Assembly: GCA_011389985.1 (NCBI GenBank)
Contig: JAABTH010000004.1
Span: forward strand, 65,846-129,845
Origin: Bacillota bacterium
GTDB taxonomy: Bacteria > Bacillota > Dethiobacteria > DTU022
DNA: 64,000 nucleotides
Reading direction: 5' to 3'
Shown: positions 31,711-64,000 of the stretch, one piece after another
How positions within the stretch are numbered: position 1 is the first letter of the stretch
How the letters are laid out: the number at the start of each line of letters is the position of its first letter
Notes under the pieces: generated by a model
The model's input: only the letters and a program-made list of their open reading frames with translations
Told to the model about the DNA's origin: nothing
The model's database searches: none
Position numbers and translations under genes: made by a program

Positions 31711-31879
31711 TATTATCTTATTGAATTATATATATATTCTGAATGATCGTCAATGTTTTGTCAAGTTTTTTCCGGTACATTATTTAGTTCCGAAAAATAA
31801 TATGCTTGACAAAGAGAATATAATTAGGTAATCTTACATTCAAGTTAATATTTAAAAGGCAATGATCGGGACCAGTAAC

Positions 31880-32110
31880 CGGCAAATGAGTTTACAGAGA
31901 GCTGCTGCAGGGTGAAAAGCAGCAATGAAGATGCCGGAGAACTCCTCCGTTAGCCGCCAACCGAAATCTCAACTGCTAAAGAGGGATGAAATTAGGCCTG
32001 GCCGGAGACTTCCGTTATCTTAAAGAGTGGGTGGTAGTAGTTTTGCCGCCAAGTAGAGTGGTAACACGGAAATAAACTTTCGTCTCTTGTACGAAAGTTT
32101 TTTTTATTTG
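31880..32110 (+). promoter_or_regulatory. probable T-box leader (likely tRNA-Leu responsive) with a terminator, upstream of leuA
   Basis: AGAGAG box near 31905; candidate specifier loop containing CUC; T-box core AGAGTGGGTGGTA at 32024-32036 (the UGGU would pair with an A73 NCCA end); 10-bp terminator hairpin AAACTTTCGT-CTCTTGT-ACGAAAGTTT then T11 at 32074-32108. Confidence 0.5.
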
Positions 32111-48452: not shown

Positions 48453-51400
48453 TACTCAATTCCTCCTGTATCATTGGCGATAAAATCTCCAAGGTGAACT
48501 TCAGCGACAAGCGGCCGGTGAGTCGGCATGGTCAGCTCAGATAAAGGAATACCTTCTTCTCTGTATATACGTAAAATTAAATCGGTACATGTTTTTCCGT
48601 TGCAGCCGCCCAGGCCGGTTCTTAGAAGCGCTTTCAACTGGTTTAGATCACGTACTCCATCCCGGATTGCCCTGACTATTTCACTTTTCCTGACTCGTTC
48701 GCAGCGGCAAACAATTGGATCGGCCTCTTCTGTAAGCGAGCCTTCAAGCGGCTGTCCCGGATCTATTTCCCTTATGTGGAATCCTGCTACCTTCAGTCTT
48801 TGATCGTAGGGAACTTCGAGCATGAGCAGGCGCCTGCTGTTTTGCTCTTTATGGTCTTTATAGGCGATAACCCTTCCCCTGCCTACAATATTGCCCTCCA
48901 TGTCTGTTGTGGTTACTTCCTGCCCGATTGGGATCAGGTTATTGATAAATTCAAAAGGCATCATTAGAAGTGCTTTCTCTTTTTTAGGATCGTAATCATC
49001 AAGGACAAGATTTATAGCCAAACCCGGACAGGCGAGCACACATCGGCCGCAACCAATGCATTCACCACTAAATTCCGGGAGCGATAATATGGAATCATTC
49101 ATGCTGATGCAATTCTTTGGACATGCTTCTGTGCAGGGGTTACAGGGGATTTCCTGCATGCAGCGAATTAATGGGTAAACATTATCTTCCCTATCTTCCG
49201 GAATAAAGGGGTCACTGCTAGCGGCATGCTGCTTTAGGGTTTCACCAAATTCTTCCCAGTCGCTGGGGACAGGAAGGTCAATACCCATCGACTGAGCGAT
49301 TTTGCGGCCTGTTATTTTTCCGGAAAAAATGGCAGCAGATGCTTCAGCAATCTCATTGGCGTCTCCGGCTGCGTATGCTTCTATTCCGTACTCTTTCGCT
49401 TTTTCCAAAAGTTCGTTAACCGGGCTTAAACCGACGGCAATTAAAACAGTATCAACTTCAAAAGATCTCTCGGTACCGGGAATAGTTTTAAAATTCTCAT
49501 CCAGGGCAGCGGTAATTACCCGTTCAACTTTCTCTTCTCCCTCAATCCGCAGGACTGTATGTGATGTCCAGACAGGCACCCCAAAGCGCCTGATCTTGTC
49601 CTCATGAACCTTGTAACCGCCACAGCGCGGCAGTGCTTCAACAAGTCCAACTACATCGATTCCGGCTTGCAGGGCATGATAAGCTCCGATTAAACCTACA
49701 TTACCTCCACCAACGATAAAGAGTTTTTCAGCACAACGGATTAGATCGCGGTTAACAAGGGTCTGAAAGGCTCCGGCGCCGTAAACTCCCGGCAAATCAG
49801 CACCGGGCAAGGCCAGGCTTTTTTCTCTTGCTCCGGTTGCAAATAAAACTTTATTTGCATTAACCAGGCGGTAGATACCGTTTGAGGAAACGCCAATTTT
49901 TCCGTCACTGAATACACCGATAACGCTTGAATTGAGCCAGGTATTAACAGTGGGTAGTTTTTGAAGGTCTCCGACCAGAATTTCGCCTATATGCATACCG
50001 CGGGAACCGGCGTAACAGTCAGAGACTGAACCAAAAAAATTATGGGTCTGCAGACTCAGTTTACCACCAAGCGATTGTTTGTCGTCTATTAACAAGGTAT
50101 CGACGCCCACGTTGCCGAGCTCTATTGCAGCACTTATTCCAGCAGGTCCTCCTCCTATAATTAGTACCTCTGCATTATATACAGGTGTTTCCGGAATGAC
50201 AGTTTCACTTGGCGGTATGTCCAAAAGTTCAGGCAGTCCTTCTACACTTTTTACAACCATTCCCTCTGTTACAGGGGTCATACAGCCTTTTACCGGTTTT
50301 CCGTCAGCAATAACCATGCATTGAGAGCACTGGCCGTTAACACAGTAAATGCCCTGAGCGGCGCCGTCATTTTCATGATGGCCGAAAATATGAATACCTG
50401 CAGCATATAAAGCAGATGTGATCACTTCATTTGTGCGTGCTTTTAATTCAAAATTATTGAAAGTAAAACTAATATCAGCCTTCTCCACGGGAGGTAAGAT
50501 GGGGTGATTGTTAATCCGGTAGAGATCCGGCATTTTTATAGTTTCAGCTTCAGTAATAGCTAAGTTTTCCCGATTGAACAATAGAGGTTTTGGTGATCTT
50601 GTTTTTTGCCAGGCTCCTTTGCGCATTAAAAGAGTATATTGAAGATATTCATTTACCGAAGCACAAGTTTTGGGTTGGCTCTCTTTTAACAGTTCTTCAA
50701 CCATTTTTGTGCGGCTCTGTTGATCAAGTGCAAAATGAAAATTTTCATCACCCGGCTGAGTACGACCGGCGAGCTTATTAATAGTTATTATTTCTCGGCC
50801 TGATTTTAAATCATTAATTTCTGCCAAACTGCTAACCGGGCGGACCGTAAGATTCTTCTCTTTAATTATTTTAAGGGCCGATTTAACTACAGAAACTACA
50901 GCAGATTCACCGGTAAGCATTTTGAAGAGCAGGTGAAGTTCTGGTAGATTGCCGAGGTATAGGAGATCGGTAATTTCAGCATTTTCAGTTTTAAAAAGTG
51001 AGGCCAGATCAGCCGGAAGCGCCGGTTTTGTCTCTGGTTGCATTTTAAACCAGTTAATAATATCAAGCGCCCGATCCATGCCGCTCTTATTTCCATTATC
51101 AGGGTCATAAACTGCTGATAAAACTGCCAAGTCACTTTGTTGTTTATATTCAGTCCAGGTATTATGAGGGCCTTCAGGACCTGGTTTGGGTGTCAACAGG
51201 GCTGTTATATTATGATTCAAGCCTAAATAGTCAAGCACACCCTGAACAGTTTTAACACGCTCTTCCCCGAGATCACCACCTTCTTTATAGGGGCAAGTCT
51301 GTCTGTCTCTGCACATCAGGCCTATCTTCCTTGCTCCCCGGGCCAGGCAGTAAAGAATTGTCGCAATATCAACACTGCCGATGCAGCTGACTCTGATCAG

Positions 51401-52336
51401 TTCGCTGTTACCAGCCGGAAAAGGAGAGCGTGAACAGGCAAATATTATATCTTTGTCCTGAAGGTTTTTATCAAGCAGAGTGTTTTTAAGATCAGATAGA
51501 TCTTCTGTTAATTCCTGGCTTATAGCCCCTGTGGGACATGCCCCGGCGCAAATACCGCAGCCCAGGCAGGCAGTTGGAGAGATAAATGCTATCGCTTCAG
51601 AGCCGAGTTGAATTGATGTTCTTGGTACTGAAAAGGGGCAGACTTCCTCGCATATCCCGCATCCGCGGCAAAGATCGCTGTTGACTTCACAAACAGGTAT
51701 TTGAAACTCTCGATTCCAGATAGTGAGTGTCTGGTTTTTCTGTTCCATGGGAATAGCCCCCGTGGGACAGATATAAGCACAGGCACGGCAGCCGGTACAC
51801 TCATCACCTACTCCATCAGGGTTTGGTGCTACAAGCTTATCAATCCCTCGCCCCAGGGTTGAAATAGCTCCAGGCCCGCAATCCTGGCATACCCTGATGC
51901 ATAAACCGCACAACACGCATTTATTATCTGGTTTTCCAACAATGTAAGAAGTTGTATCAATACCCTCTAAGCGGGCCATTGATTTGATTTCATCTGAGCC
52001 GGGGCACTGGGCCATGTACAGCTCCAGCAGCGCCTGTCGTGTTTTAAGGACATCTTCTGTTCTTGTATTTACAATTAGTCCGTCTTCAGCAGGATAGAGG
52101 CAGGATGTTACAATTTTTGAAGATTTATTCCAACTTTCTTTGGTGATCTCAACTACACAAAGACGGCAGGCGCCGGATGGTGCGAGTGCAGGATGATGGC
52201 ATAATGTTGGTATGTTGAGCCCAATATCCTCTAATATACCGAGCAGCATCTTTTTATTTTCGGTTTCTACCTTGCGTCCGTCAACTGTGATTATTATTTT
52301 CTTGCTCATCAATTTATGTTCACCTGTTTCTTTCAA
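48452..52336 (-). CDS. 1294-aa multi-domain Fe-S flavoprotein: NuoG/HydA-N-terminal-like [2Fe-2S] + 2x 2[4Fe-4S] + MvhD-like + HcnA/SoxA-type [2Fe-2S] + FAD/NAD(P) pyridine-nucleotide-disulfide oxidoreductase (HcnB/SoxA/HdrA-like) + ferredoxin + BFD-like [2Fe-2S]
   Basis: motifs in order: ITVDGRKVE..CHHP..GACRLCVVEI; four CxxCxxCxxxCP; IRVSCIGSVD..CRDRQTCPY; GIYCVNGQCSQCMV; IIGGGPAGISAA and IVGGGNVGLIGA; CIGCGRCVLACP; CRCERV..GGCNGKTC. Confidence 0.8.
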   Translation of the reverse strand: MKETGEHKLMSKKIIITVDGRKVETENKKMLLGILEDIGLNIPTLCHHPALAPSGACRLCVVEITKESWNKSSKIVTSCLYPAEDGLIVNTRTEDVLKTRQALLELYMAQCPGSDEIKSMARLEGIDTTSYIVGKPDNKCVLCGLCIRVCQDCGPGAISTLGRGIDKLVAPNPDGVGDECTGCRACAYICPTGAIPMEQKNQTLTIWNREFQIPVCEVNSDLCRGCGICEEVCPFSVPRTSIQLGSEAIAFISPTACLGCGICAGACPTGAISQELTEDLSDLKNTLLDKNLQDKDIIFACSRSPFPAGNSELIRVSCIGSVDIATILYCLARGARKIGLMCRDRQTCPYKEGGDLGEERVKTVQGVLDYLGLNHNITALLTPKPGPEGPHNTWTEYKQQSDLAVLSAVYDPDNGNKSGMDRALDIINWFKMQPETKPALPADLASLFKTENAEITDLLYLGNLPELHLLFKMLTGESAVVSVVKSALKIIKEKNLTVRPVSSLAEINDLKSGREIITINKLAGRTQPGDENFHFALDQQSRTKMVEELLKESQPKTCASVNEYLQYTLLMRKGAWQKTRSPKPLLFNRENLAITEAETIKMPDLYRINNHPILPPVEKADISFTFNNFELKARTNEVITSALYAAGIHIFGHHENDGAAQGIYCVNGQCSQCMVIADGKPVKGCMTPVTEGMVVKSVEGLPELLDIPPSETVIPETPVYNAEVLIIGGGPAGISAAIELGNVGVDTLLIDDKQSLGGKLSLQTHNFFGSVSDCYAGSRGMHIGEILVGDLQKLPTVNTWLNSSVIGVFSDGKIGVSSNGIYRLVNANKVLFATGAREKSLALPGADLPGVYGAGAFQTLVNRDLIRCAEKLFIVGGGNVGLIGAYHALQAGIDVVGLVEALPRCGGYKVHEDKIRRFGVPVWTSHTVLRIEGEEKVERVITAALDENFKTIPGTERSFEVDTVLIAVGLSPVNELLEKAKEYGIEAYAAGDANEIAEASAAIFSGKITGRKIAQSMGIDLPVPSDWEEFGETLKQHAASSDPFIPEDREDNVYPLIRCMQEIPCNPCTEACPKNCISMNDSILSLPEFSGECIGCGRCVLACPGLAINLVLDDYDPKKEKALLMMPFEFINNLIPIGQEVTTTDMEGNIVGRGRVIAYKDHKEQNSRRLLMLEVPYDQRLKVAGFHIREIDPGQPLEGSLTEEADPIVCRCERVRKSEIVRAIRDGVRDLNQLKALLRTGLGGCNGKTCTDLILRIYREEGIPLSELTMPTHRPLVAEVHLGDFIANDTGGIE

Positions 52337-54741
52337 CTTTCAACTTCGATAGCATCAAAATTGCAGGTTACGCGGCAGAGACCACAGCGGTTACAGAGAT
52401 CCTGGTTAATAATGTGCAGCTCTTTCTTATTACCGCTGATTGCCTTTTGCGGGCATAACCTGGCGCATCGTCGACAGCCGGTACAGCTAGCGGTGATTTT
52501 GAAGCTAATTAATTCTCTGCACACTCCGGCAGGGCATCTTTTATCATCAATATGGGCCATATATTCATTTTTAAAGTGTTTCAAAGTACTCCGCACTGGA
52601 TTGGAAGCAGATTTACCCAGGCCGCATAAAGAGCCCTGTTCAAGAAGGTCAAGAAGCTTCTCTATTCTCTCAATATCGCCGGGTACTCCTTTGCCCCGGC
52701 ATATTTTATCAAGTATATCATGAAGATTTGCCAGTCCGAGTCTGCAGGCAGCACATTTTCCACATGATTCCTGGGCAAGAAAATCTGTAAAATAACGTGC
52801 TACGTCAACCATGCAGGTATCTTCATCCATAACAATCATACCGCCGGAGCCCATCATCGAGCCTTCTAACGTGAGCGTATCAAAATCGACCGGTAGATCG
52901 AGTTTGCTCTCAGGCAAACAGCCTCCGGAAGGGCCACCGGTCTGAACTGCCTTAAAGGGTTTATTGTTCAATATACCACCGCATATATCATAGATAATTT
53001 TGCGCATGGTTATGCCCATCGGCACTTCAACCAGTCCGGTATTTTTGACCTTGCCCACTACAGAGAATACTTTAGTACCCGGACTGGTCACGGTTCCGGT
53101 GTTTGCATACCAGGCTGCTCCTTTATTTATGATAACCGGTATATTGGTAAAAGTTTCAACGTTGTTTAAAACGGTCGGTTTATTATAAAGGCCCCTTACT
53201 GCCGATCTGATATATTTTGCCCGTGGCTCTCCTACTCTGCCTTCAATCGATTGCATCAGCGCAGTAGATTCACCACAGACAAAAGCACCAGTACCCCGGT
53301 TGATTGTAACATCAAATGAAAAGTCTGTGCCGCAAATATTATTCCCCAGAATGCTGGCTTGTCTGCATTGATCAATCGCTGCCTGCAGGTGTTTTAATGC
53401 ACGGGGATATTCTTCGCGGACATAAATATAACCTTCTGATGCCCCAACTGCAAAAGCGCAGATGATCATTCCTTCCAATACCGAATACGGATCACCTTCC
53501 ATGATGCTGCGATCCATAAAAGCACCGGGATCTCCTTCGTCACCATTGCAAATGACATAGCGAATATCTGAATCAACTGAGGCGCTTGTACGCCATTTTT
53601 TCCCGGTCGGAAAGCCTCCTCCTCCCCTTCCTCGCAATCCTGACTTTTCAATTTCACGAATCACCTGGTCAGGTTGCATTGTATAAAGGGTTTTTATGAG
53701 GGCTTTAAAACCATCTTGTGCAAGATAGTCTTTGATATTAAGAGGATCGATAGCACCCACATTGCGCAGTGCGATACGCTGTTGTCCGGCAAAAAATGGT
53801 ATCTCCTCGTACTTTTCCACACTTTCAGCAGTTTCTGGATCATGGTACAGAAGTCTTTCTACGGCCTTGTTACCGATTATCGTTTCATCGATTATTTCCC
53901 TGGCATCTTCAGGATGGACATTATTATAAAAGATGTTCTGTGGTGAAATAATTACCAGGGGGCCTTTTTCACAGAAACCCTGGCAACCTACTCGTTTCAG
54001 ACCGATATTAACCGGTACCGGCAGCTCAGAAGAAGTTAGTTCCCGGCTGATCGCTTCGGCAACCTTAAGGCTGCCCTTGGCAAGGCAACCGGTTCCCGCA
54101 CAGACCAGGATCTTTTGTTTATCTGCTTTTTTTTCACTGGTTATTTGATTACTTAGTTTCTCAAATTGACTGGAGGATGAGATTCTTTCAACAAGAATCG
54201 GAGTAGTTTCTTTTAATGTTTCAGGTTCTGCCTGTTTTGTTTCTGAAGAGCGACACTTCTTAAGTTCTTTGGCCAGTTGAGAAGAAGTAACGCTGCCATG
54301 GTACACTCCATCAATTACTACTACAGGAGCCATAGCGCATGCACCAACACAGTGCACAGAATTAAGCGTCAATTCACCATCTTCTGTAGTGTCACCCGGT
54401 TTAATCCCAAGCTGATCCGATACCTGACTCATTAAAACTGAAGCGCCCCTGATGTGGCAGGCGGTGCCTTCACAAATGTCTATTTTGTGCTTACCGCTTG
54501 GTTTTAAAGAAAATGACTTATAAAAAGTTGCAACTGAATATACCTGTGATTTTGGAACCTTGAGAATTTCAGACACTCTGGAAACAGCTTCTGTCGGTAG
54601 GTATCCGAACTCAGCCTGGATATCCTGTAAAATCATTATTAATCCGGAGGCTTCGCTATTGTGGCGTTCAATAATAGAATCGAGCAGATTAGATTGGTTG
54701 CTCATTACCAGTCCTTCGTTTGATTTAGTTTTTATGACCAT
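52333..54741 (-). CDS. fused NuoE-like + thioredoxin-like FeS + NuoF (FMN/NADH) + 2[4Fe-4S] ferredoxin protein (HydB/HndC-type NAD(H)-binding bifurcation-module subunit)
   Basis: 802 aa; CEGTACH..CVGACAMAP; CAGTGC..CQGFCEKGP; GRGGGGFPTGKKW; ESCGKCAACR; CTGCRRCARLCP and CNRCGLCRVTC; 4-nt overlap with the downstream 1294-aa gene; the real start may be Met13 (near 54705), which has a better SD. Confidence 0.8.
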   Translation of the reverse strand: MVIKTKSNEGLVMSNQSNLLDSIIERHNSEASGLIMILQDIQAEFGYLPTEAVSRVSEILKVPKSQVYSVATFYKSFSLKPSGKHKIDICEGTACHIRGASVLMSQVSDQLGIKPGDTTEDGELTLNSVHCVGACAMAPVVVIDGVYHGSVTSSQLAKELKKCRSSETKQAEPETLKETTPILVERISSSSQFEKLSNQITSEKKADKQKILVCAGTGCLAKGSLKVAEAISRELTSSELPVPVNIGLKRVGCQGFCEKGPLVIISPQNIFYNNVHPEDAREIIDETIIGNKAVERLLYHDPETAESVEKYEEIPFFAGQQRIALRNVGAIDPLNIKDYLAQDGFKALIKTLYTMQPDQVIREIEKSGLRGRGGGGFPTGKKWRTSASVDSDIRYVICNGDEGDPGAFMDRSIMEGDPYSVLEGMIICAFAVGASEGYIYVREEYPRALKHLQAAIDQCRQASILGNNICGTDFSFDVTINRGTGAFVCGESTALMQSIEGRVGEPRAKYIRSAVRGLYNKPTVLNNVETFTNIPVIINKGAAWYANTGTVTSPGTKVFSVVGKVKNTGLVEVPMGITMRKIIYDICGGILNNKPFKAVQTGGPSGGCLPESKLDLPVDFDTLTLEGSMMGSGGMIVMDEDTCMVDVARYFTDFLAQESCGKCAACRLGLANLHDILDKICRGKGVPGDIERIEKLLDLLEQGSLCGLGKSASNPVRSTLKHFKNEYMAHIDDKRCPAGVCRELISFKITASCTGCRRCARLCPQKAISGNKKELHIINQDLCNRCGLCRVTCNFDAIEVES

Positions 54742-54825: not shown

Positions 54826-55214
54826 AATTAACAAAACATGAGAGAAAAAATCTAAGTATGGCATACAGAATAAAATAAAAAATGTTTAACTTCTCTTAAA
54901 AAAGTACATAATAAAACCAGGTCCCAACAGGCCTCTTAACTAACCGTCAGATCTTCTTCGCTTGCCCATCTACAGCTGAGCTTCCGCCACCGCCTTTGGA
55001 TGGCCTTCCCTCAACCTCCAGGAAGTTACTTTTAATCCGTTCTGAGAACTCCGGTAAATCCCGGCCTGGCGGCCTTTCATTATCCGGTTCTTTCAGTGAC
55101 CTGGTTATTTTAAGGATTCCCATTGTTGATTTCGGTTAAACCTTAATCAATTCAGGCTTTTCCTTTCAAACCCGGCCCGGCTTGCTATTCAGTCTCTCGG
55201 AACCTGGTAAATGT

Positions 55215-55243
55215 ATTATTGATCAAGTAATTTGATTTGTCAA
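55215..55243 (-). promoter_or_regulatory. distal promoter (minus strand TTGACA-N17-AATAAT) preceding a GC-rich ~300-nt structured segment
   Basis: consensus -35, 17-nt spacer, 5 of 6 -10 positions; 23 nt downstream of the rocD stop. Confidence 0.4.
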
Positions 55244-55265: not shown

Positions 55266-56462
55266 TTAAGACTGAGCAAATACCTGGGAGACAATATCTA
55301 TTGCCCAGTCGAGCTCATTTTTCGTTATTACAAGTGGGGGCGCGAACCTTATGACGTTATCATGTGTTTCTTTAGCCAGAATTCCCTTATCCATTAGTTT
55401 TTCACAATAAGGTCGGGCTTTTTCTTTTAATTCCATACCCACCATTAAACCCTTGCCCCTGATTTCTAAGATTACAGGATTATCAATATTCTTAAGTTTT
55501 TCCATAAAGTATCTACCAAGCTCATCTGATTTTTCAACCAGTTTTTCTTCCTCAAGAACATCGAGCGCGGTAAGTGAAACTGCACAGGCAAGTGGATTTC
55601 CGCCAAATGTAGATCCATGCGAACCGGGCTCGAATACTCCAAGAATTTCTTCTGAAGCTGTTACTGCTGAGATAGGATATACTCCGCCGCCAAGCGCTTT
55701 GCCAAGAATATAGACATCAGGTTTAACATTTTCCCAATCGCAGGCAAACATTTTTCCGGTACGTCCGAACCCGGTTTGAATTTCATCTGCCATAAAGATG
55801 ACATTGTTTTCTTTGCAAAGTTTGTAAGCTTCATTTAAGAAACCTTCGGGCGGGATAATAATTCCTCCTTCACCCTGCACAGGTTCGATTAAGAGGGCAG
55901 CGGTGTTTTCATTAATAGCCTCTCTAAGGGCATCTATGCTGCCGTACTCTATTATTTTGAATCCTGGTGTGTAGGGGCCAAAACCTGCTTTATAGGCTTC
56001 ATCGGAGCTGAATGAAATAATAGTAACAGTTCTACCGTGAAAGTTACCTTTGCAGGCAATAATTTCTGCCTTATTTTCAGGTATATTTTTAACTTTGTAT
56101 GCCCAGCGGCGTACAGCTTTAATTGCGGTTTCAACTGCCTCTGCTCCGGTATTCATCGGCAGAACCATCTCTTTGCCTGTTAATTCTGCCAGGCGGTGGC
56201 AGAATTCACCAAGCTGATCGTTATGAAAAGCCCTGGATGTAAGAGTTATTTTATCTGCCTGCGCTTTTAATGCGTCAATTATTTTTGGATGACAGTGTCC
56301 GAAATTCATTGCTGAATAAGCGCTAAGCATATCCATGTAACGTTTTCCTTCAGGATCGGTTACCCAGACACCCTCTCCTTTGGCCAGGACAACTGGCAGT
56401 GGAAGGTAGTTCCTTGCTCCATACTTTTCATTCAGCTTCATAACCTCTTTTGTGGTTTGCAT
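55266..56462 (-). CDS. rocD: ornithine--oxo-acid aminotransferase (class III PLP aminotransferase); the ORF track extends to a TTG at 56480
   Basis: about 398 aa; class-III aminotransferase motifs; ATG at 56462 has SD AAAGAGGTG at 7-nt spacing. Confidence 0.8.
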
Positions 56463-56647
56463 ACATAACACCTCTTTCAATGATGATTAACCTGTTTTAT
56501 AATTGATCCGGTAAGGCCTGGACATAAAAATATCCCGTGTTTATAGCGGGATACGCGTTTTATTCTCAGCGTAATCTGTAATTTCCAGCGGGTCATCACT
56601 TTCGAGTTCATTCATAAGTGCCTTTGCCGGCATTAGATAAACTCCTT

Positions 56648-56708: not shown

Positions 56709-56784
56709 TGGCAGGGGAGACAGGACTTGAACCCGCAGCCTGCGGTTTTGGAGACCGCTGCTCTGCCAGTTGAGCTACTCCCCT
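56709..56784 (-). tRNA. tRNA-Trp (anticodon CCA)
   Basis: minus strand reads AGGGGAGTAGCTCAACTGGCAGAGCAGCGGTCTCCAAAACCGC...TCTCCCCTGCCA; near-identical architecture to bacterial tRNA-Trp; anticodon loop CTCCAAA. Confidence 0.85.
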
Positions 56785-56844: not shown

Positions 56845-59226
56845 TTAAACCAAATCGTGAGCGGTACGTGCTATAATCTCATTTTGAAGCTGTTCGCTAA
56901 GGTTATTAAAATAGTCACTGTAACCGGCTACCCTGACAATTAAACTGCGAAATTGTTCTGGGTTTGCCTGAGCTTTTTTCAAAGTATCTGCATCAATAAC
57001 ATTAAACTGTAGATGATGACCGTCCATTCTGAAATAAGATCTGACAAGATGGACCAGATTATCCAGACCTTTTTCACCGGTGAGTACTTTCGGCGAAAAT
57101 TTAAGATTAAGTAAAGTTCCCCCCGTTGCCAGGTGATCCATTTTAGCAGCTGATTTAATCACAGCAGTCGGTCCGTTAAGGTCGTTGCCCTGAACAGGTG
57201 AAATGCCTTCAGACAGTGGCATTCCGGACAAGCGGCCATCAGGAGTAGCCCTGATTACTGAACCAAAGTATACATGAGATGTAGTGGGCAGCATGTTGAT
57301 TCTGTATGTGGCGCCACGTATACTCTTGCGTCCATCAACTAAACGGTGAAAGATTTGGAAGACATTTTGCATGATAATGTCCGCATAGTCTTCATCATTG
57401 CCGTAATGGGGAGTTTTATTAACGATGTACTGGCGCATGGCTTCTTGTCCTGAAAAGTTATTAGCTAATGCAGAAAGTAGTTCATCCCAACTGTATTTCT
57501 GCTCATCATAAATATGTTTTTTAATCGATGTTAAAGAGTCAGTAATTGACCCTATGCCTACACCCTGGATATAGTTTGTATTGTAGCGTGATCCACCGGA
57601 ATTGTAATCTTTAGCTTTATCAATGCAGTCATCGATAATTAGTGACAGAAAAGGTGCCGGCATAGAATCTGCATAAAGTTTTTCAATCAGCTGGTTACCG
57701 GCAATTTTGATCTCCAAAAAATGTTGAAGCTGAGTTTCAAAAGCATCCATCAGCTGATCAAAACTTTCAAAGTTACCCGGATCACCAGTGTCCGGCCCAA
57801 GTTTTTTACCGGTTAATGGATCACGGCCGCGGTTCATCGTTATTTCCAAAACTTTGGTCAGGTTGAAATAGCCGGTCAGGATGTAACTTTCTTTTCCGAA
57901 AGCGCCGGTTTCAACACAACCACTTATGCCGCCATTTCGCGCATCAACCAGTGACTTGCCCTGGACCAGTAATTCCTGAATTACCGCTTCTACATTAAAT
58001 ACAGAAGGTTGTCCCCAGCCTTTGCGGATTATTTCCCCTGCTTTCCTGATAAAAAGGTCCGGGCTTTTTTTACTAACCTGTATATTTGTGCTTGGCTGAA
58101 GAAGTCGCATTTCATCAATAACTTCCAACAGAAGATAGGTGAGTTCGTTAACCCCGCTATTGCCATCAGGTTTTAGCCCGCCCAGGTTAATATTTGAAAA
58201 ATCTGTATAAGTACCACTTTCCTTTAAAGTTATTCCCACTTTTGGAGGAGCAGGTTGATTATTAAATTTGATCCAGAAGCATTCAAGCAACTCTTTTGCT
58301 TTATCTTTGCATAAAGAGTTATTATTTATACCTTTGCTGTAGAACGGCCAGATATGCTGGTCAAGCCTTCCGGGGCAGAAAGCGTCCCAGGTATTTAATT
58401 CAGTTATAACCCCGAGGTGGATAAACCAGTAGTGTTGAAGAGCTTCCCACATATCACGGGGTGCATTTGCCGGAACATTATCACAAACAAAGGCAATTTT
58501 AAGCAGCTCTTCTCTTCTTCCTGTCGATTTTTCAGATTCGGCCAGCTCTCTTGCTCTGTCAGCATGCCTTTTTGCATAAGTTATTATTGAATCAGCACAT
58601 ATCGCCATCGCTTGCAGCTGTTCACTTTTAGCCAGTGCTTCTTGATCTTCTATAAAATCAATTGAATCGAGTTTGCGGGCGATTTGCTTTTTTAAATCAA
58701 GCATGCCCATATTATAGATTTTATCACCCGCTACCGTATGTCCCGGAGCACGCTGTTCCATGAATTCTGTGAAAATACCGGCTTCGTAACAGTTATGCCA
58801 ATCACTACTCATTTTACTGAAGATAATGTCCCGCATTGAACGGCCCTTCCAGTATGGGATAATCTCATTTTCCTGAGTATTCCTTACATCATCGCTTACA
58901 TCAAATGAAATCTTCTCACGTTCTGAGATTACCGAAAGATCATCGATTGTATGACAACAAAGTTCCGGATAGGTAGGAGTAGCCTGCGGTCCGGTTCCAC
59001 GTTCGCCGACAATTAATTCACCATGGTTAATGCATATAGTTTTGTTTTCCATTAGGTGTTTGAAAGTCAGAGCTCTCAGTAAAGGCATACTCACCTTGTT
59101 TGCATATTTTTTATATACTTCTGTAACTAAAAGAGCTCTTTCAATGGTGATTGAAGGCACAGTTGATTCGCTTTGGATTCGCAGATTTTGCACTCTTTCA
59201 TTTGTACCCCGTTTGATGTTATTCAT
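56845..59226 (-). CDS. glycyl radical enzyme (PFL-fold; candidate hydroxyproline dehydratase-type GRE)
   Basis: 793 aa; Cys loop GGISGCVETG; glycyl radical motif RVAGYSDYFNNLS near the C-terminus. Confidence 0.85.
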   Translation of the reverse strand: MNNIKRGTNERVQNLRIQSESTVPSITIERALLVTEVYKKYANKVSMPLLRALTFKHLMENKTICINHGELIVGERGTGPQATPTYPELCCHTIDDLSVISEREKISFDVSDDVRNTQENEIIPYWKGRSMRDIIFSKMSSDWHNCYEAGIFTEFMEQRAPGHTVAGDKIYNMGMLDLKKQIARKLDSIDFIEDQEALAKSEQLQAMAICADSIITYAKRHADRARELAESEKSTGRREELLKIAFVCDNVPANAPRDMWEALQHYWFIHLGVITELNTWDAFCPGRLDQHIWPFYSKGINNNSLCKDKAKELLECFWIKFNNQPAPPKVGITLKESGTYTDFSNINLGGLKPDGNSGVNELTYLLLEVIDEMRLLQPSTNIQVSKKSPDLFIRKAGEIIRKGWGQPSVFNVEAVIQELLVQGKSLVDARNGGISGCVETGAFGKESYILTGYFNLTKVLEITMNRGRDPLTGKKLGPDTGDPGNFESFDQLMDAFETQLQHFLEIKIAGNQLIEKLYADSMPAPFLSLIIDDCIDKAKDYNSGGSRYNTNYIQGVGIGSITDSLTSIKKHIYDEQKYSWDELLSALANNFSGQEAMRQYIVNKTPHYGNDEDYADIIMQNVFQIFHRLVDGRKSIRGATYRINMLPTTSHVYFGSVIRATPDGRLSGMPLSEGISPVQGNDLNGPTAVIKSAAKMDHLATGGTLLNLKFSPKVLTGEKGLDNLVHLVRSYFRMDGHHLQFNVIDADTLKKAQANPEQFRSLIVRVAGYSDYFNNLSEQLQNEIIARTAHDLV

Positions 59227-60139
59227 TTTTCTGTTCTACCTCGCTGATTATATTAATTCCTCTTTCTGCAAGAAAAGTTCTGATATGTTCAAGGGCTTCA
59301 GGACCGGGAATATTGATGCCGCTCATTTTGTAATCAAGATCCAGGTTTATATATTTTGCTGAACCAAGTTTATGGTAAGGGATAAGCTCCAAAGAGTTAA
59401 TTCCTTCTCGTTTCAACACTGCTGCGACCTGATTCAGGCTGGCCGCGTCGTCGTTAACAGTGGGGATGACAGGCATTCTTACCAAAATTTCAGCTTCATT
59501 TGCAATTAGGTTATGTAAGTTTTCTAAGATTGGCTTCATATCGACCCCAAGGTACTTTTTAGATTTTCTTGCATCAGCAATTTTTAGATCATAAATATAA
59601 AGATCTGTATATGGCATAGTATCCCTTAAACCGGACCAGTTAGCAAACCCCGAAGTTTCAATGGCGGTATGGATTCCCTCGTGCTTTAAAGTCTCTAAAG
59701 TTTCAATTAGAAAATCAGGTTGCATCAGCGGTTCCCCGCCTGAAAAAGTTGCCCCGCCTCCCGATTCTTCAAAAACAATTCTATCTTTTATTATTTCATT
59801 AACTAGCTCCACTACATTAATTTCCCGGCCTGCTTCTTCGAGCGTTTCTGTCGGACAATTCGCAGCACATAACATACAAAGGCTGCAACGCTTACGATCT
59901 ATGAAAGGACCGTTATCTGTTAATTGAACTGCCTTTTCCGGGCAATGCTCAACGCAAAATCGGCATGATATACAACGATCAGGGTGTTTAAAAAGCACTT
60001 TATCCCGTTTGATGCCTTCCGGGTTTTGGCACCAGGGGCAGCTTAACGGGCAGCCTTTAAAAAAAACAGTTGTTCTAATACCTGGTCCGTCATGCAGAGA
60101 AAACCGTTGGATGTTAAAAATTATGCCTTTATTCATCAT
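59219..60139 (-). CDS. glycyl-radical enzyme activating enzyme (radical SAM, with ferredoxin-like insert)
   Basis: 306 aa; CPLSCPWCQNPE radical-SAM cluster plus two extra Cys clusters; overlaps the downstream GRE by 8 nt. Confidence 0.85.
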   Translation of the reverse strand: MMNKGIIFNIQRFSLHDGPGIRTTVFFKGCPLSCPWCQNPEGIKRDKVLFKHPDRCISCRFCVEHCPEKAVQLTDNGPFIDRKRCSLCMLCAANCPTETLEEAGREINVVELVNEIIKDRIVFEESGGGATFSGGEPLMQPDFLIETLETLKHEGIHTAIETSGFANWSGLRDTMPYTDLYIYDLKIADARKSKKYLGVDMKPILENLHNLIANEAEILVRMPVIPTVNDDAASLNQVAAVLKREGINSLELIPYHKLGSAKYINLDLDYKMSGINIPGPEALEHIRTFLAERGINIISEVEQKNE

Positions 60140-60214
60140 ATCTCCGTTTCACTGACAATAAATATTATAACAGAACATAAGACAAGATGTTAGTATCAAC
60201 AATATACTGCACTA

Positions 60215-60247
60215 TTCAGGTATGCTATAATTAATTAGTAACCTGAA
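60215..60247 (+). promoter_or_regulatory. extended -10 promoter (TGCTATAAT) for GRE2, bracketed by the 7-bp inverted repeat TTCAGGT-N19-ACCTGAA
   Basis: the inverted-repeat arms flank the -10 hexamer in the divergent intergenic region; the opposite strand carries TGTTATAAT (60165-60173) for the AE1-GRE1 operon. Confidence 0.4.
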
Positions 60248-60266
60248 ATAAGCTGGAGGGATTTAA

Positions 60267-62684
60267 ATGCCTCAAATAAAACAAGAAAAAGCAGGGTTAA
60301 ATATTGATCCTGCTTACATGAAGCGGGTAACCTTTCTTAAACGCAGGGTGCTTAATACCCGGCCGGAAATGGATCTGGAAAACGCCAGGCTGCTGACAAG
60401 AGGTTTTCGGGAAGCTGAAGGTGAACCACTTGTAGTTCGTAAAGCCAAAGCTTTTCGGAAACAGTGTTATGAAAAAACAGTTAAGATCTGGGATGAAGAA
60501 CTGATTGTCGGCTGTTCAGGCAGTAAAATCAGGGCAGGTATTCTCTGCGCCGATTCCTGCTGGTCAGTTCTTGACGAAGAACTCGACACGATTAGCAGCA
60601 GAAGATATGATCCCTTTAATCTCAAGCCTGAAGACAGGCTTGCTTTTGAAGAGGAAATTCGTCCTTATTGGAAAGGACGTTCAAATTACGAGGAATGGTT
60701 GGCCCAGATTCCCGATGATACAAGGACTCTTCGCGACAATGGAGTGGTATACATTGATCGAAAGGCAGTGCGTGGCTGGGGTGAAACAACGGCCGGCTAT
60801 GAATGGCTGATAAACGAAGGCCTGGACGGAATAATAAAAACTATTGAAGATCGAAAATCAAGGCTTGATATAACAAATTCGGGAGATTACGAGAAAGACT
60901 ATTATCTCAAATCGCTTTTGATAATAGCTGACGGTATGACCAGGCTTGCCGAAAGATATGCAGAAGAAGCTGAACAGATGGCATCCCGCGAAGGTGACGA
61001 ACGGCGCAAAGGTGAACTGCTGGAAATTGCAAAAACTTGCCGTCGCGTCCCCGTAAAGCCGGCCCGCACTTTCCGCGAAGCCTTGCAGTCGCTATATTTT
61101 TACCAAACAATGATATTCATGGAGCAGAATGCTGCCAGTTATAACCCCGGCAGAATGGATCAGTATCTCTGGCCATTTTATAGGAAGGATCTTGAAGCCG
61201 GGCACATTACATCTGAACAAGCGCAGGAACTGCTCGATTGCCTCTGGGTCAAATTCAGCGAACCCTGTCTTTTCCAGGATGCTCAGACAGCAGAATTTGC
61301 AGCCGGTTATCCTATGTTTCAAAATGTATGTGTAGGAGGTGTTGACGATACCGGTAAAAATGCTGTTAATGATCTGTCCTACATGATTCTTCAGGCGACC
61401 ATGGATGTCCGATTATACCAACCTTCACTTTCGGTACGTTATAGTGTTTCGAAAAACCCTAATTCTTTTTTGCGTAAGGTAGTGGAGCTGATCAGGTTGG
61501 GAACAGGATTTCCCGCTTTTCACAACGACGATATCGGCACTACAATGCTTATGAACAAAGGCGTGCCACTGAAGGAGGCATACAACTGGAATCCCTGTGG
61601 TTGTGTTGAGACAAATCTGGAAGGTCGGATGCGTCAGTACACCGCCCTGGCTGATATTAACCTTGGCAGTATGGTTGAATTCGCCCTGCTTAACGGGATG
61701 AACAGAAAAAGCGGCTTAACCATATCTGTAAAAACCGGGGAGCCAACGGAATTCGATTCCTATGATCAGTTCCTGGATGCTGTTAAAAAACATTTAGCAT
61801 ATGCAACAAGAGCTGTCGTAGCCGGAAGTCACATTATCGATGAGATCGGTTTGAACAGACCTGTTCCTGCTCTTTCTCTTACTTTCAAAGAATGTATAGA
61901 TAATGCAAAAGATTATGCCTGGGGTGGCGCTAAATATAACGTAGGTAATGGTATTATTCTGATTGGAGTAGCCGACTTGATCAATAGTATTGCAGCTGTT
62001 AAATATCTTGTATTTGATACCGGAAAAATCACAATGAAGAAGCTTATAGAAGCTCTTGATCAAGATTTTAAAGGTTTCGAAGATATTCGTAAGCTTTGTC
62101 TTGAGGCTCCCAAATACGGTAATGATGATCCTTATGCCGATGAAATTGCAGGAGAGGTATTTACTTATATTGCAGATGAAATTGAACGTTATAAAAGCAA
62201 ATATGGAACTATGACACCCGGCATTCTACCTGTTTCAGGAAATACACCTTTCGGCCTCGAAGTAGGAGCTCTGCCGTCGGGACGAAAAGCCTGGCAGCCA
62301 CTGGCTGATGGAGTTAGTCCCAGTGGAGGAACTGATTTAAACGGACCAAGTGCAGTAATAAAATCAGTTGCCCATATTCCACATGGCCGGTTTGTTCAGG
62401 GCACCCTGCTCAACATGAAGATTGAACCCGCTATGCTCAATTCGGAAAACGGTATAACCCAGCTTATGGCGCTGTTAAAAAGTTTATGCAGTCTTGGTAT
62501 CTTCCATGTCCAGTTCAATGTCATAGACCAGGAAACTCTGATCAAGGCACAACAGGATCCTGATAATTATAAAGGATTGCTTGTAAGGGTGGCCGGCTAT
62601 ACAGCCTATTTTGTTGAGCTTGGTAAAGATGTTCAGGATGAAATCATCGGACGCACGGTCCAGCACGGTATTTCGCTGGGATGA
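60267..62684 (+). CDS. glycyl radical enzyme, second paralogue (substrate unknown)
   Basis: 805 aa; Cys loop NPCGCVETN; glycyl radical motif RVAGYTAYFVELG. Confidence 0.85.
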   Translation: MPQIKQEKAGLNIDPAYMKRVTFLKRRVLNTRPEMDLENARLLTRGFREAEGEPLVVRKAKAFRKQCYEKTVKIWDEELIVGCSGSKIRAGILCADSCWSVLDEELDTISSRRYDPFNLKPEDRLAFEEEIRPYWKGRSNYEEWLAQIPDDTRTLRDNGVVYIDRKAVRGWGETTAGYEWLINEGLDGIIKTIEDRKSRLDITNSGDYEKDYYLKSLLIIADGMTRLAERYAEEAEQMASREGDERRKGELLEIAKTCRRVPVKPARTFREALQSLYFYQTMIFMEQNAASYNPGRMDQYLWPFYRKDLEAGHITSEQAQELLDCLWVKFSEPCLFQDAQTAEFAAGYPMFQNVCVGGVDDTGKNAVNDLSYMILQATMDVRLYQPSLSVRYSVSKNPNSFLRKVVELIRLGTGFPAFHNDDIGTTMLMNKGVPLKEAYNWNPCGCVETNLEGRMRQYTALADINLGSMVEFALLNGMNRKSGLTISVKTGEPTEFDSYDQFLDAVKKHLAYATRAVVAGSHIIDEIGLNRPVPALSLTFKECIDNAKDYAWGGAKYNVGNGIILIGVADLINSIAAVKYLVFDTGKITMKKLIEALDQDFKGFEDIRKLCLEAPKYGNDDPYADEIAGEVFTYIADEIERYKSKYGTMTPGILPVSGNTPFGLEVGALPSGRKAWQPLADGVSPSGGTDLNGPSAVIKSVAHIPHGRFVQGTLLNMKIEPAMLNSENGITQLMALLKSLCSLGIFHVQFNVIDQETLIKAQQDPDNYKGLLVRVAGYTAYFVELGKDVQDEIIGRTVQHGISLG

Positions 62685-63643
62685 AAGATAAAGATATTGT
62701 GAAGAAAAATAAGGTAAAAGGCAATATTATCAGGATCGAAAGATCTTCCATACATGACGGACAGGGCTTAAGAACAGTAATATTTTTAAAAGGCTGTAAG
62801 CTAAGCTGTCCCTGGTGTTCTACGCCTGAATCGCAATCTTTTGAATTTGAGAAAGGCTACGATCAGAGACTATGTACAGTCTGCGGCCAGTGCGTTGAGT
62901 CCTGCCCTGAAAATGCTATCTCTTTTTTTAATGATGGTCTGAGCGTTAGTACTGACAAAGATAAATGTGTAAGATGTTTTCGATGTTTTGAGGTGTGCCA
63001 GGCTAATGCAGTTAAAAAGTACGGATTCACTGTTTCTGTTGATGACTTAATGAAGGAGATTAGTAAGGATGAAATATTCTACTTCCACTCTGAAGGCGGG
63101 ATAACAATTAGCGGAGGAGAACCGCTCTGCCAGCCTGTTTTCTGCGCCGCACTTCTAGAAGAATGCAAAAAAGTTGGTATTCACACAGCTATGGAAAGCA
63201 GTCTTCATACCTCTTACAGCAGCTTTAATAAAGTACTGCCCTGGATCGATCATCTCTATGCCGACCTTAAACATATGGATAACCAGATGCATGCTCTATG
63301 GGTGGGGGAAAGCAATCATCTTATTCTCGAAAATCTGCTGAGAGCAGATCAAACTGATTATTCTTATCGATTAACAATTCGCCTTCCTCTTATTCCAGGT
63401 TTTAACGATACAGATCTCAATCTTCAAGCTACAATAGATTTTTGCCGGAAACTGAAAAAAATAAAAGAAATAGAACTGTTACCTTATCATCGATTAGGTA
63501 GTGATACTTATCGCCTGCTTGGATTAGATTACAAATGTCGCGAACTTATGCCACCTTCAATAGATCACCTTGACGAGCGGGTGGCTTATATGAACAGCCT
63601 TTCATCCGGTATTCCTATAAAAACAGGTAGCGGAATTACCTGA
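62681..63643 (+). CDS. glycyl-radical enzyme activating enzyme (radical SAM)
   Basis: 320 aa; CKLSCPWCSTPE plus two ferredoxin-like Cys clusters; 4-nt overlap with GRE2. Confidence 0.85.
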   Translation: MKDKDIVKKNKVKGNIIRIERSSIHDGQGLRTVIFLKGCKLSCPWCSTPESQSFEFEKGYDQRLCTVCGQCVESCPENAISFFNDGLSVSTDKDKCVRCFRCFEVCQANAVKKYGFTVSVDDLMKEISKDEIFYFHSEGGITISGGEPLCQPVFCAALLEECKKVGIHTAMESSLHTSYSSFNKVLPWIDHLYADLKHMDNQMHALWVGESNHLILENLLRADQTDYSYRLTIRLPLIPGFNDTDLNLQATIDFCRKLKKIKEIELLPYHRLGSDTYRLLGLDYKCRELMPPSIDHLDERVAYMNSLSSGIPIKTGSGIT

Positions 63644-64000
63644 GAATAAAGCCGTGTCTTAAAGGATCATCCGGATCTATAATTAGCTTATTGATTCCGC
63701 ATATGTGAGCAGAGCCTGTTACTTTTGGTATAACTGCATCATAAGGGCCAAAAGTGGTTTTTTCTACTGCCTCACCCGTAAAACAGCTGCCCAGGATACT
63801 TTCCACCACAAAAGGTTCGTTAATTGCAAGATCACCTTTACTAATGTGGATTGCCGCTCTGGCACTCACTCCAGTACCTGTAGGGCTTCGATCTACTTCG
63901 CCGTCAGCAAAAACACAGACATTCCTGCTGTGATTTCCCGGTTGCTCGGCCTTTCCGATAAATATAATTCCATAGAGAAAACCGAGGTCGTCTTCAAAGG
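63636..64000 (-). CDS. proline racemase superfamily enzyme, C-terminal ~120 aa only (5' end beyond the window); Cys->Thr at the second catalytic position suggests a trans-3-hydroxy-L-proline dehydratase-type enzyme
   Basis: minus-strand translation ...NHSRNVCVFADGEVDRSPTGTGVSARAAIHISKGDL...KVTGSAHICGINKLIIDP...; matches the family motif DRSPCGTGTSA with T in place of C; converges on and overlaps AE2 by 8 nt. Confidence 0.6.
   Translation of the reverse strand, partial: FEDDLGFLYGIIFIGKAEQPGNHSRNVCVFADGEVDRSPTGTGVSARAAIHISKGDLAINEPFVVESILGSCFTGEAVEKTTFGPYDAVIPKVTGSAHICGINKLIIDPDDPLRHGFILR

Follow-up and report, generated by a model that had tools for sequence, protein, structure and literature searches.

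The downstream end of a 64-kb stretch of contig JAABTH010000004.1 from an uncultured Bacillota lineage (the whole stretch is called the window hereafter) carries two genes for glycyl radical enzymes (GREs), GRE1 and GRE2, each adjoined by the gene for its radical-SAM activase (AE1 and AE2), and next to them the 3' part of a gene of the proline-racemase (ProRac) family. Judged from sequence comparison, this region represents, with a probability of roughly three in four, a multi-substrate anaerobic hydroxyproline (Hyp) utilisation island. An original prediction, made from the sequence of the window, had named it a candidate anaerobic hydroxyproline locus; the features described there were confirmed, and the assignments reached for GRE1, GRE2 and the ProRac product are in keeping with such a role. 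GRE1 and the ProRac enzyme add ordinary new members to families that are well characterised. GRE2 belongs to a family that was defined in 2024 but falls in an uncharacterised sister clade of one of its enzymes, HpyG, and the remaining novelty of the locus lies in this clade.

GRE1 as a HypD

HypD and its activase, HypD-AE, were reportedly described from Clostridioides difficile by Levin in 2017. The original prediction regarded GRE1 as a plausible HypD-type dehydratase, and at the level of sequence this assignment is confirmed, because GRE1 passes the threshold of the HypD equivalog model, finds its closest structural match in C. difficile HypD and retains the complete set of active-site residues considered. 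Against the equivalog model NF043068 (cut-off 1100) GRE1 scores 1347.2 bits over residues 9-790, compared with 634.5 bits for GRE2, and the next specific NCBIfam model for GRE1 stays below 600 bits. The C. difficile structure (PDB 6VXC) is matched at 1112 bits and 58% identity, the next structure, glycerol dehydratase, at 539 bits, while the scores against the CutC model TIGR04394 (501.1 bits; cut-off 1050) and HplG (7VUA; 397 bits) are lower again. A clustering of GRE1 with PFL, glycerol dehydratase or some other clade was looked for as a refutation, and HypD proved to be the closest relative.

The HypD residues that bind trans-4-hydroxy-L-proline or take part in acid-base chemistry have been listed by Backman et al. 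2020 (PMC7077986). These 15 positions (F152, R156, H160, W277, D278, K326, S334, D339, F340, C434, V435, E436, Y450, T645 and G765) were mapped onto GRE1 by alignment to the C. difficile enzyme, and all 15 are identical, the equivalents being F155, R159, H163, W280, D281, K329, S337, D342, F343, C437, V438, E439, Y453, T648 and G768. The predicted catalytic residues of GRE1 are thus Cys437, Glu439 and Gly768.

The likeness to the C. difficile pair (6VXC/6VXE) includes the length class of GRE1, the CXE Cys loop, the RVAGY glycine loop, an adjoining long-type activase and a pyrroline-5-carboxylate (P5C) reductase gene within 10 kb. The locus differs from that of C. difficile in that proC, some 10 kb off, stands in an operon with a proline-dehydrogenase-like complex, in that hypD is arranged head-to-head with a second GRE operon, and in that the host is an uncultured Bacillota lineage and not a gut Clostridium. 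The closest genome matches to the host are metagenome-assembled genomes (MAGs), several of them labelled Syntrophomonadaceae (with names of the form CSSed...).

GRE2 and the HpyG/HpzG family

HpyG and HpzG are N-methyl-4-hydroxyproline dehydratases, reportedly described by Jiang et al. in ACS Catal in 2024. Among solved structures GRE2 matches 8ID1 (HpyG) at 1251 bits and 8IOF (HpzG) at 955 bits, followed by CutC (553-645 bits), glycerol dehydratase (533), HypD (506) and HplG (383). Full-length identity amounts to 67% with HpyG and 52% with HpzG, identity with HypD is 36%, and in a neighbour-joining (NJ) analysis GRE2, HpyG and HpzG were grouped in 40/40 bootstraps. GRE2 is on these comparisons a predicted member of the HpyG/HpzG family. 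The original prediction had given GRE2 a second specificity, possibly for another Hyp isomer, as a C-N lyase or for an unrelated substrate. The family assignment bears out the second specificity, and the C-N lyase part falls, as HplG (7VUA) scores 383 bits against 1251 for HpyG; HypD and glycerol dehydratase were rejected as identities of GRE2 on the same comparison. HplG, a trans-4-hydroxy-D-proline C-N lyase, resembles the enzymes studied here in being a GRE that acts on a hydroxyproline isomer and in its CXE loop. It differs in being the weakest eliminase/isomerase match of GRE2 and GRE1 alike (383-397 bits), and its setting differs as well, since the ProRac gene next to GRE2 is of the Cys/Thr type and not a Cys/Cys Hyp epimerase, and none of the neighbours classified was recognised as a thiolase of the OrtAB type.

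The predicted catalytic residues of GRE2 are Cys446, Glu448 and Gly777, with the same Cys-loop numbering pattern as in HpyG and HpzG, and the residues equivalent to the HypD pocket are R165, R169, E173, A290, Q337, A345, M350, F351, L461, D463 and V656. GRE2 agrees with HpyG at 14/15 pocket columns, including all four that split HpyG from HpzG, the columns compared being the HypD equivalents and not the ligand contacts of 8ID1. As in HpyG, the residues Trp277-Asp278, His160, Asp339, Tyr450 and Thr645 of HypD are not retained (the Asp278 column holds Ala, and Trp277 is deleted), and the acid/base residue equivalent to Asp278 is missing in GRE2, HpyG and HpzG alike. According to a 2026 review from the Drennan laboratory, 8ID1 is HpyG and 8IOF is HpzG, the dehydratases of two N-methyl-4-hydroxyproline isomers, which combine Cys435 and Glu437 with a HypD-like abstraction of the C5 hydrogen and elimination of the 4-hydroxyl (PMC13450708). 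HypD probably deprotonates the ring nitrogen through Asp278, a step without which a tertiary N-methyl amine could pass to an iminium; by this argument, which is our own, the absence of the residue from GRE2 as well speaks for a substrate substituted at the nitrogen. GRE2 most likely still dehydrates a substrate of the N-methyl-4-hydroxyproline type, in one or another isomeric form.

The ProRac-family gene

The part of the ProRac gene that lies inside the window reads ...DGEVDRSPTGTGVSAR... and matches Pfam Pro_racemase at 2e-36. The motif DRSPTGTG, which had been noticed earlier in the truncated convergent gene, was read again in its 120-codon translation. The full gene was obtained from the Logan contig L001, of which 601 bases align to the window with one synonymous mismatch. 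It is intact in L001, and no pseudogene, and encodes a protein of 340 aa with the motifs SMC96GHG and DRSPT260GTG, so that the first catalytic residue, which the truncated gene had left to be checked, is Cys96. The protein matches 6R76/6R77 (TlLhpH of T. litoralis) at 447 bits and 56% identity, is 47% identical to human L3HYPDH, and shares with TlT3LHypD and human L3HYPDH the residues D66, Y68, M95, C96, Y180, Y229, D256, R257, T260 and T262. TlLhpH has been characterised, with a Km of 0.29 mM for trans-3-hydroxy-L-proline (T3LHyp), and Cys-Thr members of the family are T3LHyp dehydratases by the classification of Watanabe et al. (PMC4141209). With Thr at the second catalytic position a two-base racemisation is not possible, and the product of the gene is, by its predicted catalytic pair, of the Cys/Thr dehydratase type.

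With TlLhpH (6R76/6R77) and human L3HYPDH (7QPO) the protein has in common the Cys/Thr pair and the Met-Cys, Tyr, Asp-Arg and Thr-x-Thr residues of the active site and lid. It differs from them in falling below the equivalog cut-offs, in having no adjoining OCD-type pyrroline-2-carboxylate (Pyr2C) reductase, and in being co-transcribed with an unclassified membrane protein that bears a thioredoxin motif, to which the closest relative adds an ABC importer. At four related loci (L008, L011, L056 and L077) the gene next to AE2 encodes a Ser/Thr-type ProRac enzyme, which in L008 scores 621 bits and so exceeds the T3LHypDht equivalog cut-off of 550. The presence of two ProRac subfamilies at one position suggests that the dehydratase activity itself is selected in the locus. 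In Desulfosporosinus the Cys/Thr ProRac gene is paired with an OCD reductase (L017: PRK08618, 449 bits), which together make up the classic pair that leads from T3LHyp through Pyr2C to proline.

The ProRac gene converges on AE2, and the 3' ends of the two genes overlap by 8 bp (63636-63643). For the minus-strand ProRac gene only one terminator-like hairpin was seen, at 63642-63624 within the coding sequence of AE2.

Relatives of GRE2 and their gene neighbourhoods

A scan with one genome per species yielded 80 loci with GRE2 relatives, which were aligned and placed on a bootstrapped NJ tree. GRE2 falls in a clade (clade A) made up of 59 loci and the window, whose members share 71-86% identity with GRE2 and 63-69% with HpyG and are held together in 40/40 bootstraps. 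HpyG itself groups with 14 loci, mostly from gut Lachnospiraceae, Enterococcus and Butyricicoccus, in a second clade (clade B; 39/40 bootstraps). Clade A is the larger of the two and mostly environmental, and includes lineages of Desulfosporosinus, Desulfobulbales, Formimonas and Syntrophomonadaceae-like bacteria. Eleven alignment columns separate clade A cleanly from the HpyG clade, among them those of Ser334, Tyr450 and Asp553-Ala554 of HpyG. The deeper-branching relatives in L073 and L075 are linked to MttB-family methyltransferase genes and yet have the clade-A residue states, so that these states look ancestral and those of HpyG derived, and the states of GRE2 would be compatible with a methylated-amine substrate. 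A change of Ser334 to Ala was considered as a clean specificity switch and rejected, since the deep MttB-linked relatives also have Ala.

The neighbourhoods of the two clades differ as well. In clade B an MttB-family methyltransferase gene occurs at 4/14 loci, a P5C-reductase homologue at 5/14 and an MFS transporter gene at 4/14, all three being absent from the clade-A neighbourhoods. The neighbours of clade A are a Liv-type binding protein of an ABC importer (21 of the 59 loci), HypD (14/59), an OCD/mu-crystallin reductase (15/59), a ProRac-family gene (16/59, of which 10 are Cys/Thr, five Ser/Thr and one Cys/Cys) and a gene for an Fe-S serine-dehydratase-like protein (12/59); a gene of either the ProRac family or the Fe-S type is found at 25/59. 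Among solved structures the Liv-type binding protein matched generic Leu/Ile/Val-binding proteins only, which gave no clue to its ligand.

In MAGs of the Desulfobulbales type (L042:11289-13876; L043, L045, L046, L049, L050 and L082) a convergent pair of genes encodes an OCD/mu-crystallin reductase and an Fe-S L-serine-dehydratase-like protein of 517 aa, and this pair comes after the genes for the homologue of GRE2, the cognate activase and the importer of the Liv type. The Fe-S protein appears to replace the ProRac-family dehydratase in these genomes, and it may constitute a third, non-homologous 3-hydroxyproline dehydratase.

The closest genome, L003, is a Bacillota MAG whose GRE2 is 86% identical to that of the window. 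Beyond the position of the window end it carries on the minus strand, in the order of transcription, genes for AFOR, LivK, LivH, LivM, LivG, LivF, a membrane protein of 421 aa and the ProRac enzyme, an order that would make the ProRac dehydratase the last gene of an importer operon. The product of the membrane-protein gene (L003:14383-15648; in part at L001:7905-9050) bears a thioredoxin-like CPVC motif near its N-terminus, is predicted to span the membrane many times and matches no Pfam or NCBIfam model. The gene is kept in 6-8 related loci, and its stop overlaps the start of the ProRac gene. Desulfosporosinus paludis has LivKHMGF-GRE2-AE2-AE1-HypD on one strand, and in Desulfosporosinus this co-directional series is followed by the ProRac(C/T)-OCD pair, while Desulfobulbales have GRE2-AE2-Liv-EamA together with an OCD gene and one of the SDH-like kind.

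Evidence against the assignments and alternative readings

A number of observations weigh against the reading of the locus as a hydroxyproline island, or against parts of it. GRE2 reaches no NCBIfam equivalog cut-off (CutC, HypD, sulfopropanediol and others were among the models) and passes the generic PFL2/GD subfamily threshold only. It stands in a sister group of the HpyG clade and not inside that clade, and two of its likely pocket residues depart from those of HpyG (Ser334 to Ala345 and Tyr450 to Leu461), as does the pair Ile564-Leu565, which stands for Asp553-Ala554; these differences are uniform over the 60 clade-A sequences (59 loci and the window). The pocket placement of HpyG position 450 (HypD 448) rests on its being on the strand two residues before HypD Tyr450 and on its presumed correspondence to glycerol dehydratase Asp447; no mention of the residue as pocket-lining was found in the literature searched. 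The genes for MttB and P5C reductase, neither of which adjoins GRE2 in the window, occur at 0/59 clade-A loci each, so that the physiological substrate could differ from that of HpyG, and the substrate names of HpyG and HpzG were taken from the review (PMC13450708) and not from the original report. The ProRac protein has the T3LHyp dehydratase model NF045511 as its top match, at 378.7 bits against a cut-off of 540, and scores 189.8 bits against NF047722 (cut-off 550). An OCD-type Pyr2C reductase was found neither in the 64-kb window nor in the 8 kb that L003 adds; the 3-Hyp branch is incomplete locally, and the Pyr2C reductase is the main local gap. The ABC importer is known from L003 and not from the window, L001 ending inside the membrane-protein gene, and the 64-kb window was found to hold no Liv transporter genes, no MttB methyltransferase gene and no Fe-S serine-dehydratase-like gene.

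The most serious alternative concerns the substrate of GRE2. Clade A might not be isofunctional with HpyG and HpzG and might act on another hydroxyproline derivative, such as an N-alkyl-4-Hyp stereoisomer (trans-L) or 3,4-dihydroxyproline, in which case its pathway would be coupled mechanistically to the 3-Hyp-type dehydratase and the OCD imine reductase, and would not form a parallel branch. Such a clade would represent a further GRE dehydratase specificity, departed from the betaine-demethylation context of HpyG, for a directly imported Hyp derivative (N-methyl-trans-4-hydroxy-L-proline or 3,4-dihydroxyproline, for example), with a fixed partnership between GRE, dehydratase and imine reductase. 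The monophyly of clade A, the eleven clean columns (HpyG positions 334 and 450 among them), the disjoint neighbourhoods and the recurrence of three non-orthologous dehydratase types in the accessory role over the lineages all speak in its favour, as does the finding that 'PFL' and serine dehydratase genes flank genes for OCD-type Pyr2C reductases (Watanabe et al. 2014, PMC4141209). Nevertheless, 67% identity and agreement at 14/15 pocket columns are in the range usual for isofunctional GREs, the clade-A states are shared with the deeper MttB-linked relatives and look ancestral, substrate contact of the differing residues comes from an alignment and not from a ligand-bound model, and an importer shared by several Hyp isomers would explain the co-location with 3-Hyp genes equally well. 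A substrate of its own for clade A, other than the one assigned to HpyG, is a tentative proposal, which we hold to be less probable than not.

The other alternatives carry less weight. It is unlikely that HypD, GRE2 and the ProRac enzyme belong to unrelated pathways and are neighbours by coincidence. The ProRac gene does lie on the opposite strand as part of a different operon, hypD is parted from rocD by a tRNA gene that has a promoter and a terminator to itself, and proC is far from either, but the same three functions are found together in differing gene orders in lineages as distant as Desulfosporosinus and Desulfobulbales, and recurrence over such rearrangements argues for selection and not for chance. 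It is very improbable that the truncated gene encodes a proline racemase or a 4-hydroxyproline 2-epimerase that provides one or other GRE with a D-isomer, after the manner of the HplG pathway; the racemase model PRK13969 is indeed the second-best NCBIfam match of the protein (347.1 bits), and Cys/Cys members stand next to a GRE in L053 and L075, but Thr260 takes the place of the second catalytic Cys, on which ground this identity was rejected, Cys-Thr members are T3LHyp dehydratases (PMC4141209), two characterised T3LHyp dehydratases are the closest relatives among solved structures, and neither GRE resembles HplG. It is scarcely credible, finally, that GRE2 is CutC (a choline trimethylamine-lyase) or a dehydratase of diols or glycerol, names given to its homologues by several automatic annotations. 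Several homologues with 77-80% identity (P0008, P0020, P0027, P0041, P0060, P0068 and P0072) are called 'choline trimethylamine-lyase' by JGI, and the CutC model TIGR04394 is the second-best NCBIfam match of GRE2. Its score of 695.8 bits is far short of the cut-off of 1050, however, and the CutC structures score well below HpyG; microcompartment or aldehyde-processing genes, which are typical of CutC loci, were not seen in the neighbourhood. Given that shortfall, the trimethylamine (TMA)-lyase names in the GRE2 clade are probably mis-annotations, which could inflate counts of TMA-lyases in metagenomes.

Gene layout and control region

The coordinates of the operons, read as AE1-GRE1 on the minus strand and GRE2-AE2 on the plus strand with a shared spacer of 127 bp, stand as first described (Table 1). 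The start of hypD is overlapped by the stop of AE1 over 8 bp and the stop of GRE2 by the start of AE2 over 4 bp, overlaps that indicate translational coupling within each predicted GRE/activase pair. Both GREs have PFL-like (PF02901) and Gly_radical (PF01228) Pfam matches at E <= 1e-200, and the GCVE Cys loop (C437-V-E439 in GRE1, C446-V-E448 in GRE2) and the RVAGY glycyl radical motif were read in both translations, as had been proposed. The activases were likewise found to be of the long type, with scores of 332 bits (AE1) and 312 bits (AE2) against the GRE-activase model TIGR02494 (cut-off 174), a Radical_SAM match, and a Cx3Cx2C motif plus a two-cluster ferredoxin insert (Pfam Fer4 at about residues 50-110). 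The motif is CPLSCPWC in AE1, followed by two ferredoxin-type Cys motifs, and CKLSCPWC in AE2, and the best specific model for AE1 is the HypD activase NF043069 (341 bits, under the cut-off of 425). Each of the two pairs thus combines a barrel, a glycine domain, a Cys loop and an adjoining activase. The matches behind this layout are full-length and high-scoring, and not due to chance; the remaining large open reading frames (ORFs) of the window are housekeeping genes only, according to profile scans.

Table 1. Features of the predicted hydroxyproline locus and its upstream neighbours (window coordinates)
Feature	Position	Strand	Length	Basis
GRE1 (hypD)	56845-59226	minus	793 aa	ORF map, profile matches
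AE1, hypD-activating radical SAM enzyme	59219-60139	minus	306 aa	
GRE2, HpyG/HpzG-family	60267-62684	plus	805 aa	
AE2, GRE2-activating radical SAM enzyme	62681-63643	plus	320 aa	
ProRac-family gene, 3' part (runs off window end)	63636-64000	minus	120 codons	translation, Pfam
Divergent control region AE1/GRE2	60140-60266		127 bp	
tRNA-Trp (CCA)	56709-56784	minus		ARAGORN, Rfam
rocD, ornithine-oxo-acid transaminase	55266-56480	minus		NCBIfam NF003145
proC, pyrroline-5-carboxylate reductase	46329-47141	minus		TIGR00112
Three-gene redox complex (NuoE+NuoF fusion, 1294-aa fusion, DAO flavoprotein)	47280-54741	minus		

A promoter scan placed two extended -10 promoters back to back in the spacer, TGTTATAAT on the minus strand (60172-60164) for AE1-hypD and TGCTATAAT at 60223-60231 for GRE2-AE2, and a GGAGG ribosome-binding site precedes the GRE2 ATG by 8 nt. 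The head-to-head arrangement of hypD and GRE2 is kept, together with both -10 elements, in 10 related loci. No operator or regulator gene was identified for the control region. The tRNA-Trp(CCA) gene between hypD and rocD has a sigma-70 promoter with 11/12 matches (56824-56796) and a terminator with a 15-bp stem (56700-56664).

Proline-related genes upstream

The nearness of proC and rocD to GRE1, as noted in the original prediction, holds true, with rocD directly downstream past the tRNA gene and proC 9.7 kb off. The product of rocD, which would convert ornithine to glutamate semialdehyde/P5C, scores 707 bits against NF003145 (cut-off 656), and the gene stands beside hypD in six genome loci and several metagenome contigs. 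ProC scores 273 bits against TIGR00112 (cut-off 197), and proC is the last recognisable proline-related gene of an upstream operon that also encodes a NuoE+NuoF fusion of 802 aa, a fusion protein of 1294 aa with 2Fe-2S, several 4Fe-4S, FlpD/MvhD-like, Pyr_redox_2 and BFD-like domains, and a DAO-family flavoprotein of 390 aa. The best PDB match of the flavoprotein is 1Y56_B (161 bits), deposited as 'sarcosine oxidase', which we take to be the beta subunit of the L-proline dehydrogenase of P. horikoshii. In its make-up the complex resembles a heteromeric dehydrogenase, for proline or for an N-methyl amino acid, that is joined to a module for NADH and ferredoxin, and it may use NAD and ferredoxin to oxidise proline or possibly an N-methylated amino acid. 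Synteny of the complex with hypD is seen in L003, L018, L021 and L077, and in Desulfosporosinus paludis split genes of the complex stand beside hypD, ProRac and OCD genes.

In the aerobic pathway 4-Hyp is degraded by way of an epimerase/D-Hyp dehydrogenase route, whereas the 4-Hyp branch here would run through oxygen-sensitive GREs; this feature, and the fusion of the dehydrogenase to NuoE/F-type modules, set the locus apart from the clusters of T. litoralis and Azospirillum brasilense. Shared with those clusters (LhpH/LhpI; PMC4141209) are the ProRac dehydratase and a heteromeric flavoprotein dehydrogenase like SoxA/SoxB, joined in related genomes by the OCD reductase, and 'PFL-like' genes have been noted near such clusters (PMC4141209). 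A homocitrate-synthase-like (NifV-type) gene (45100-46305, minus) lies directly downstream of proC, and elsewhere in the window a phage-integrase-family gene (30712-31710, minus) adjoins the T-box leader (31853-32090, plus) of a leuA-type gene.

A conserved structured RNA

Between rocD and the NuoE/F gene lies a conserved structured RNA of about 300 nt (about 54900-55208, minus) with its own promoter (about 55215-55243), which is better conserved than the flanking genes. Its invariant 5' sequence CCAGGTTCCGAGAGACTG pairs with the 3' sequence CTGTTGGRACCTGG, followed by a U-tract, and several internal helices show compensatory changes. A search of Rfam 15 gave no match even at E = 1. The element was also found at L003:4632-4941, L018:4672-4971, L021:2640-2945, L056:22-318 and L077:4823-5119, and an exact-18-mer scan retrieved 71 metagenome contigs, 58 of which (L083-L153) hold the full element. 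These fall into two classes. The first (23 contigs) lies between rocD and proC or the operon led by the NuoE/F gene wherever the flank suffices, and the second (35 contigs) is a stand-alone gene of about 325 nt that has a strong promoter (TTGACA/TATAAT) and is flanked by genes of the opposite strand. The RNA is a candidate for a new small-RNA family or for a leader of proline genes.

Predicted pathway and its meaning

Following the mechanism of the family, each activase would generate, by means of S-adenosylmethionine and a [4Fe-4S] cluster, a radical at the C-terminal glycine of its partner, Gly768 in GRE1 and Gly777 in GRE2, from where the radical would pass to Cys437 or Cys446, respectively. 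This cysteine would abstract a hydrogen from C5 of the pyrrolidine ring, and the 4-hydroxyl, held by Glu439 or Glu448, would leave as water. GRE1, as a predicted HypD, would thereby dehydrate trans-4-hydroxy-L-proline to P5C. GRE2 would convert a ring-N-substituted 4-hydroxyproline, most likely an N-methyl-4-hydroxyproline isomer, to N-methyl-pyrrolinium-5-carboxylate, and the ProRac enzyme, with Cys96 and Thr260, would act as a one-base dehydratase that turns trans-3-hydroxy-L-proline into pyrroline-2-carboxylate. An importer of the LivKHMGF type, which forms an operon with the ProRac gene in the closest relative, presumably brings the substrates in.

The further proposal that the locus would funnel hydroxyprolines from collagen, together with ornithine, into proline calls for three refinements. 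The genes hypD, rocD and proC are present, but the substrate of GRE2, if it is like those of its characterised relatives, would be an N-methylated hydroxyproline and not a product of collagen, and the gap at the Pyr2C reductase leaves the 3-Hyp branch incomplete locally. In plants or algae N-methylated hydroxyproline serves as an osmolyte, and it also arises when hydroxyproline betaine is broken down. Flux may run either into or out of proline, because the upstream complex resembles a heteromeric L-proline dehydrogenase fused to NuoE/F-type modules.

Hydroxyprolines reach anoxic habitats from collagen, from the glycoproteins of plant cell walls and as osmolytes, and represent abundant nitrogen-rich substrates there. 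Two radical dehydratases and a cofactor-free dehydratase around one importer, as judged from the closest relative, would point to the breakdown of mixed isomers and not of a single compound. The clade of GRE2 comprises hundreds of sequences from anaerobes of peat, sediment and soda lakes, which are at present annotated generically or, probably wrongly, as choline TMA-lyases, and its gene context predicts a physiology unlike that of the HpyG enzymes of the gut. The substrate of one member would annotate the whole clade and correct the over-calling of TMA-lyases in metagenome surveys.

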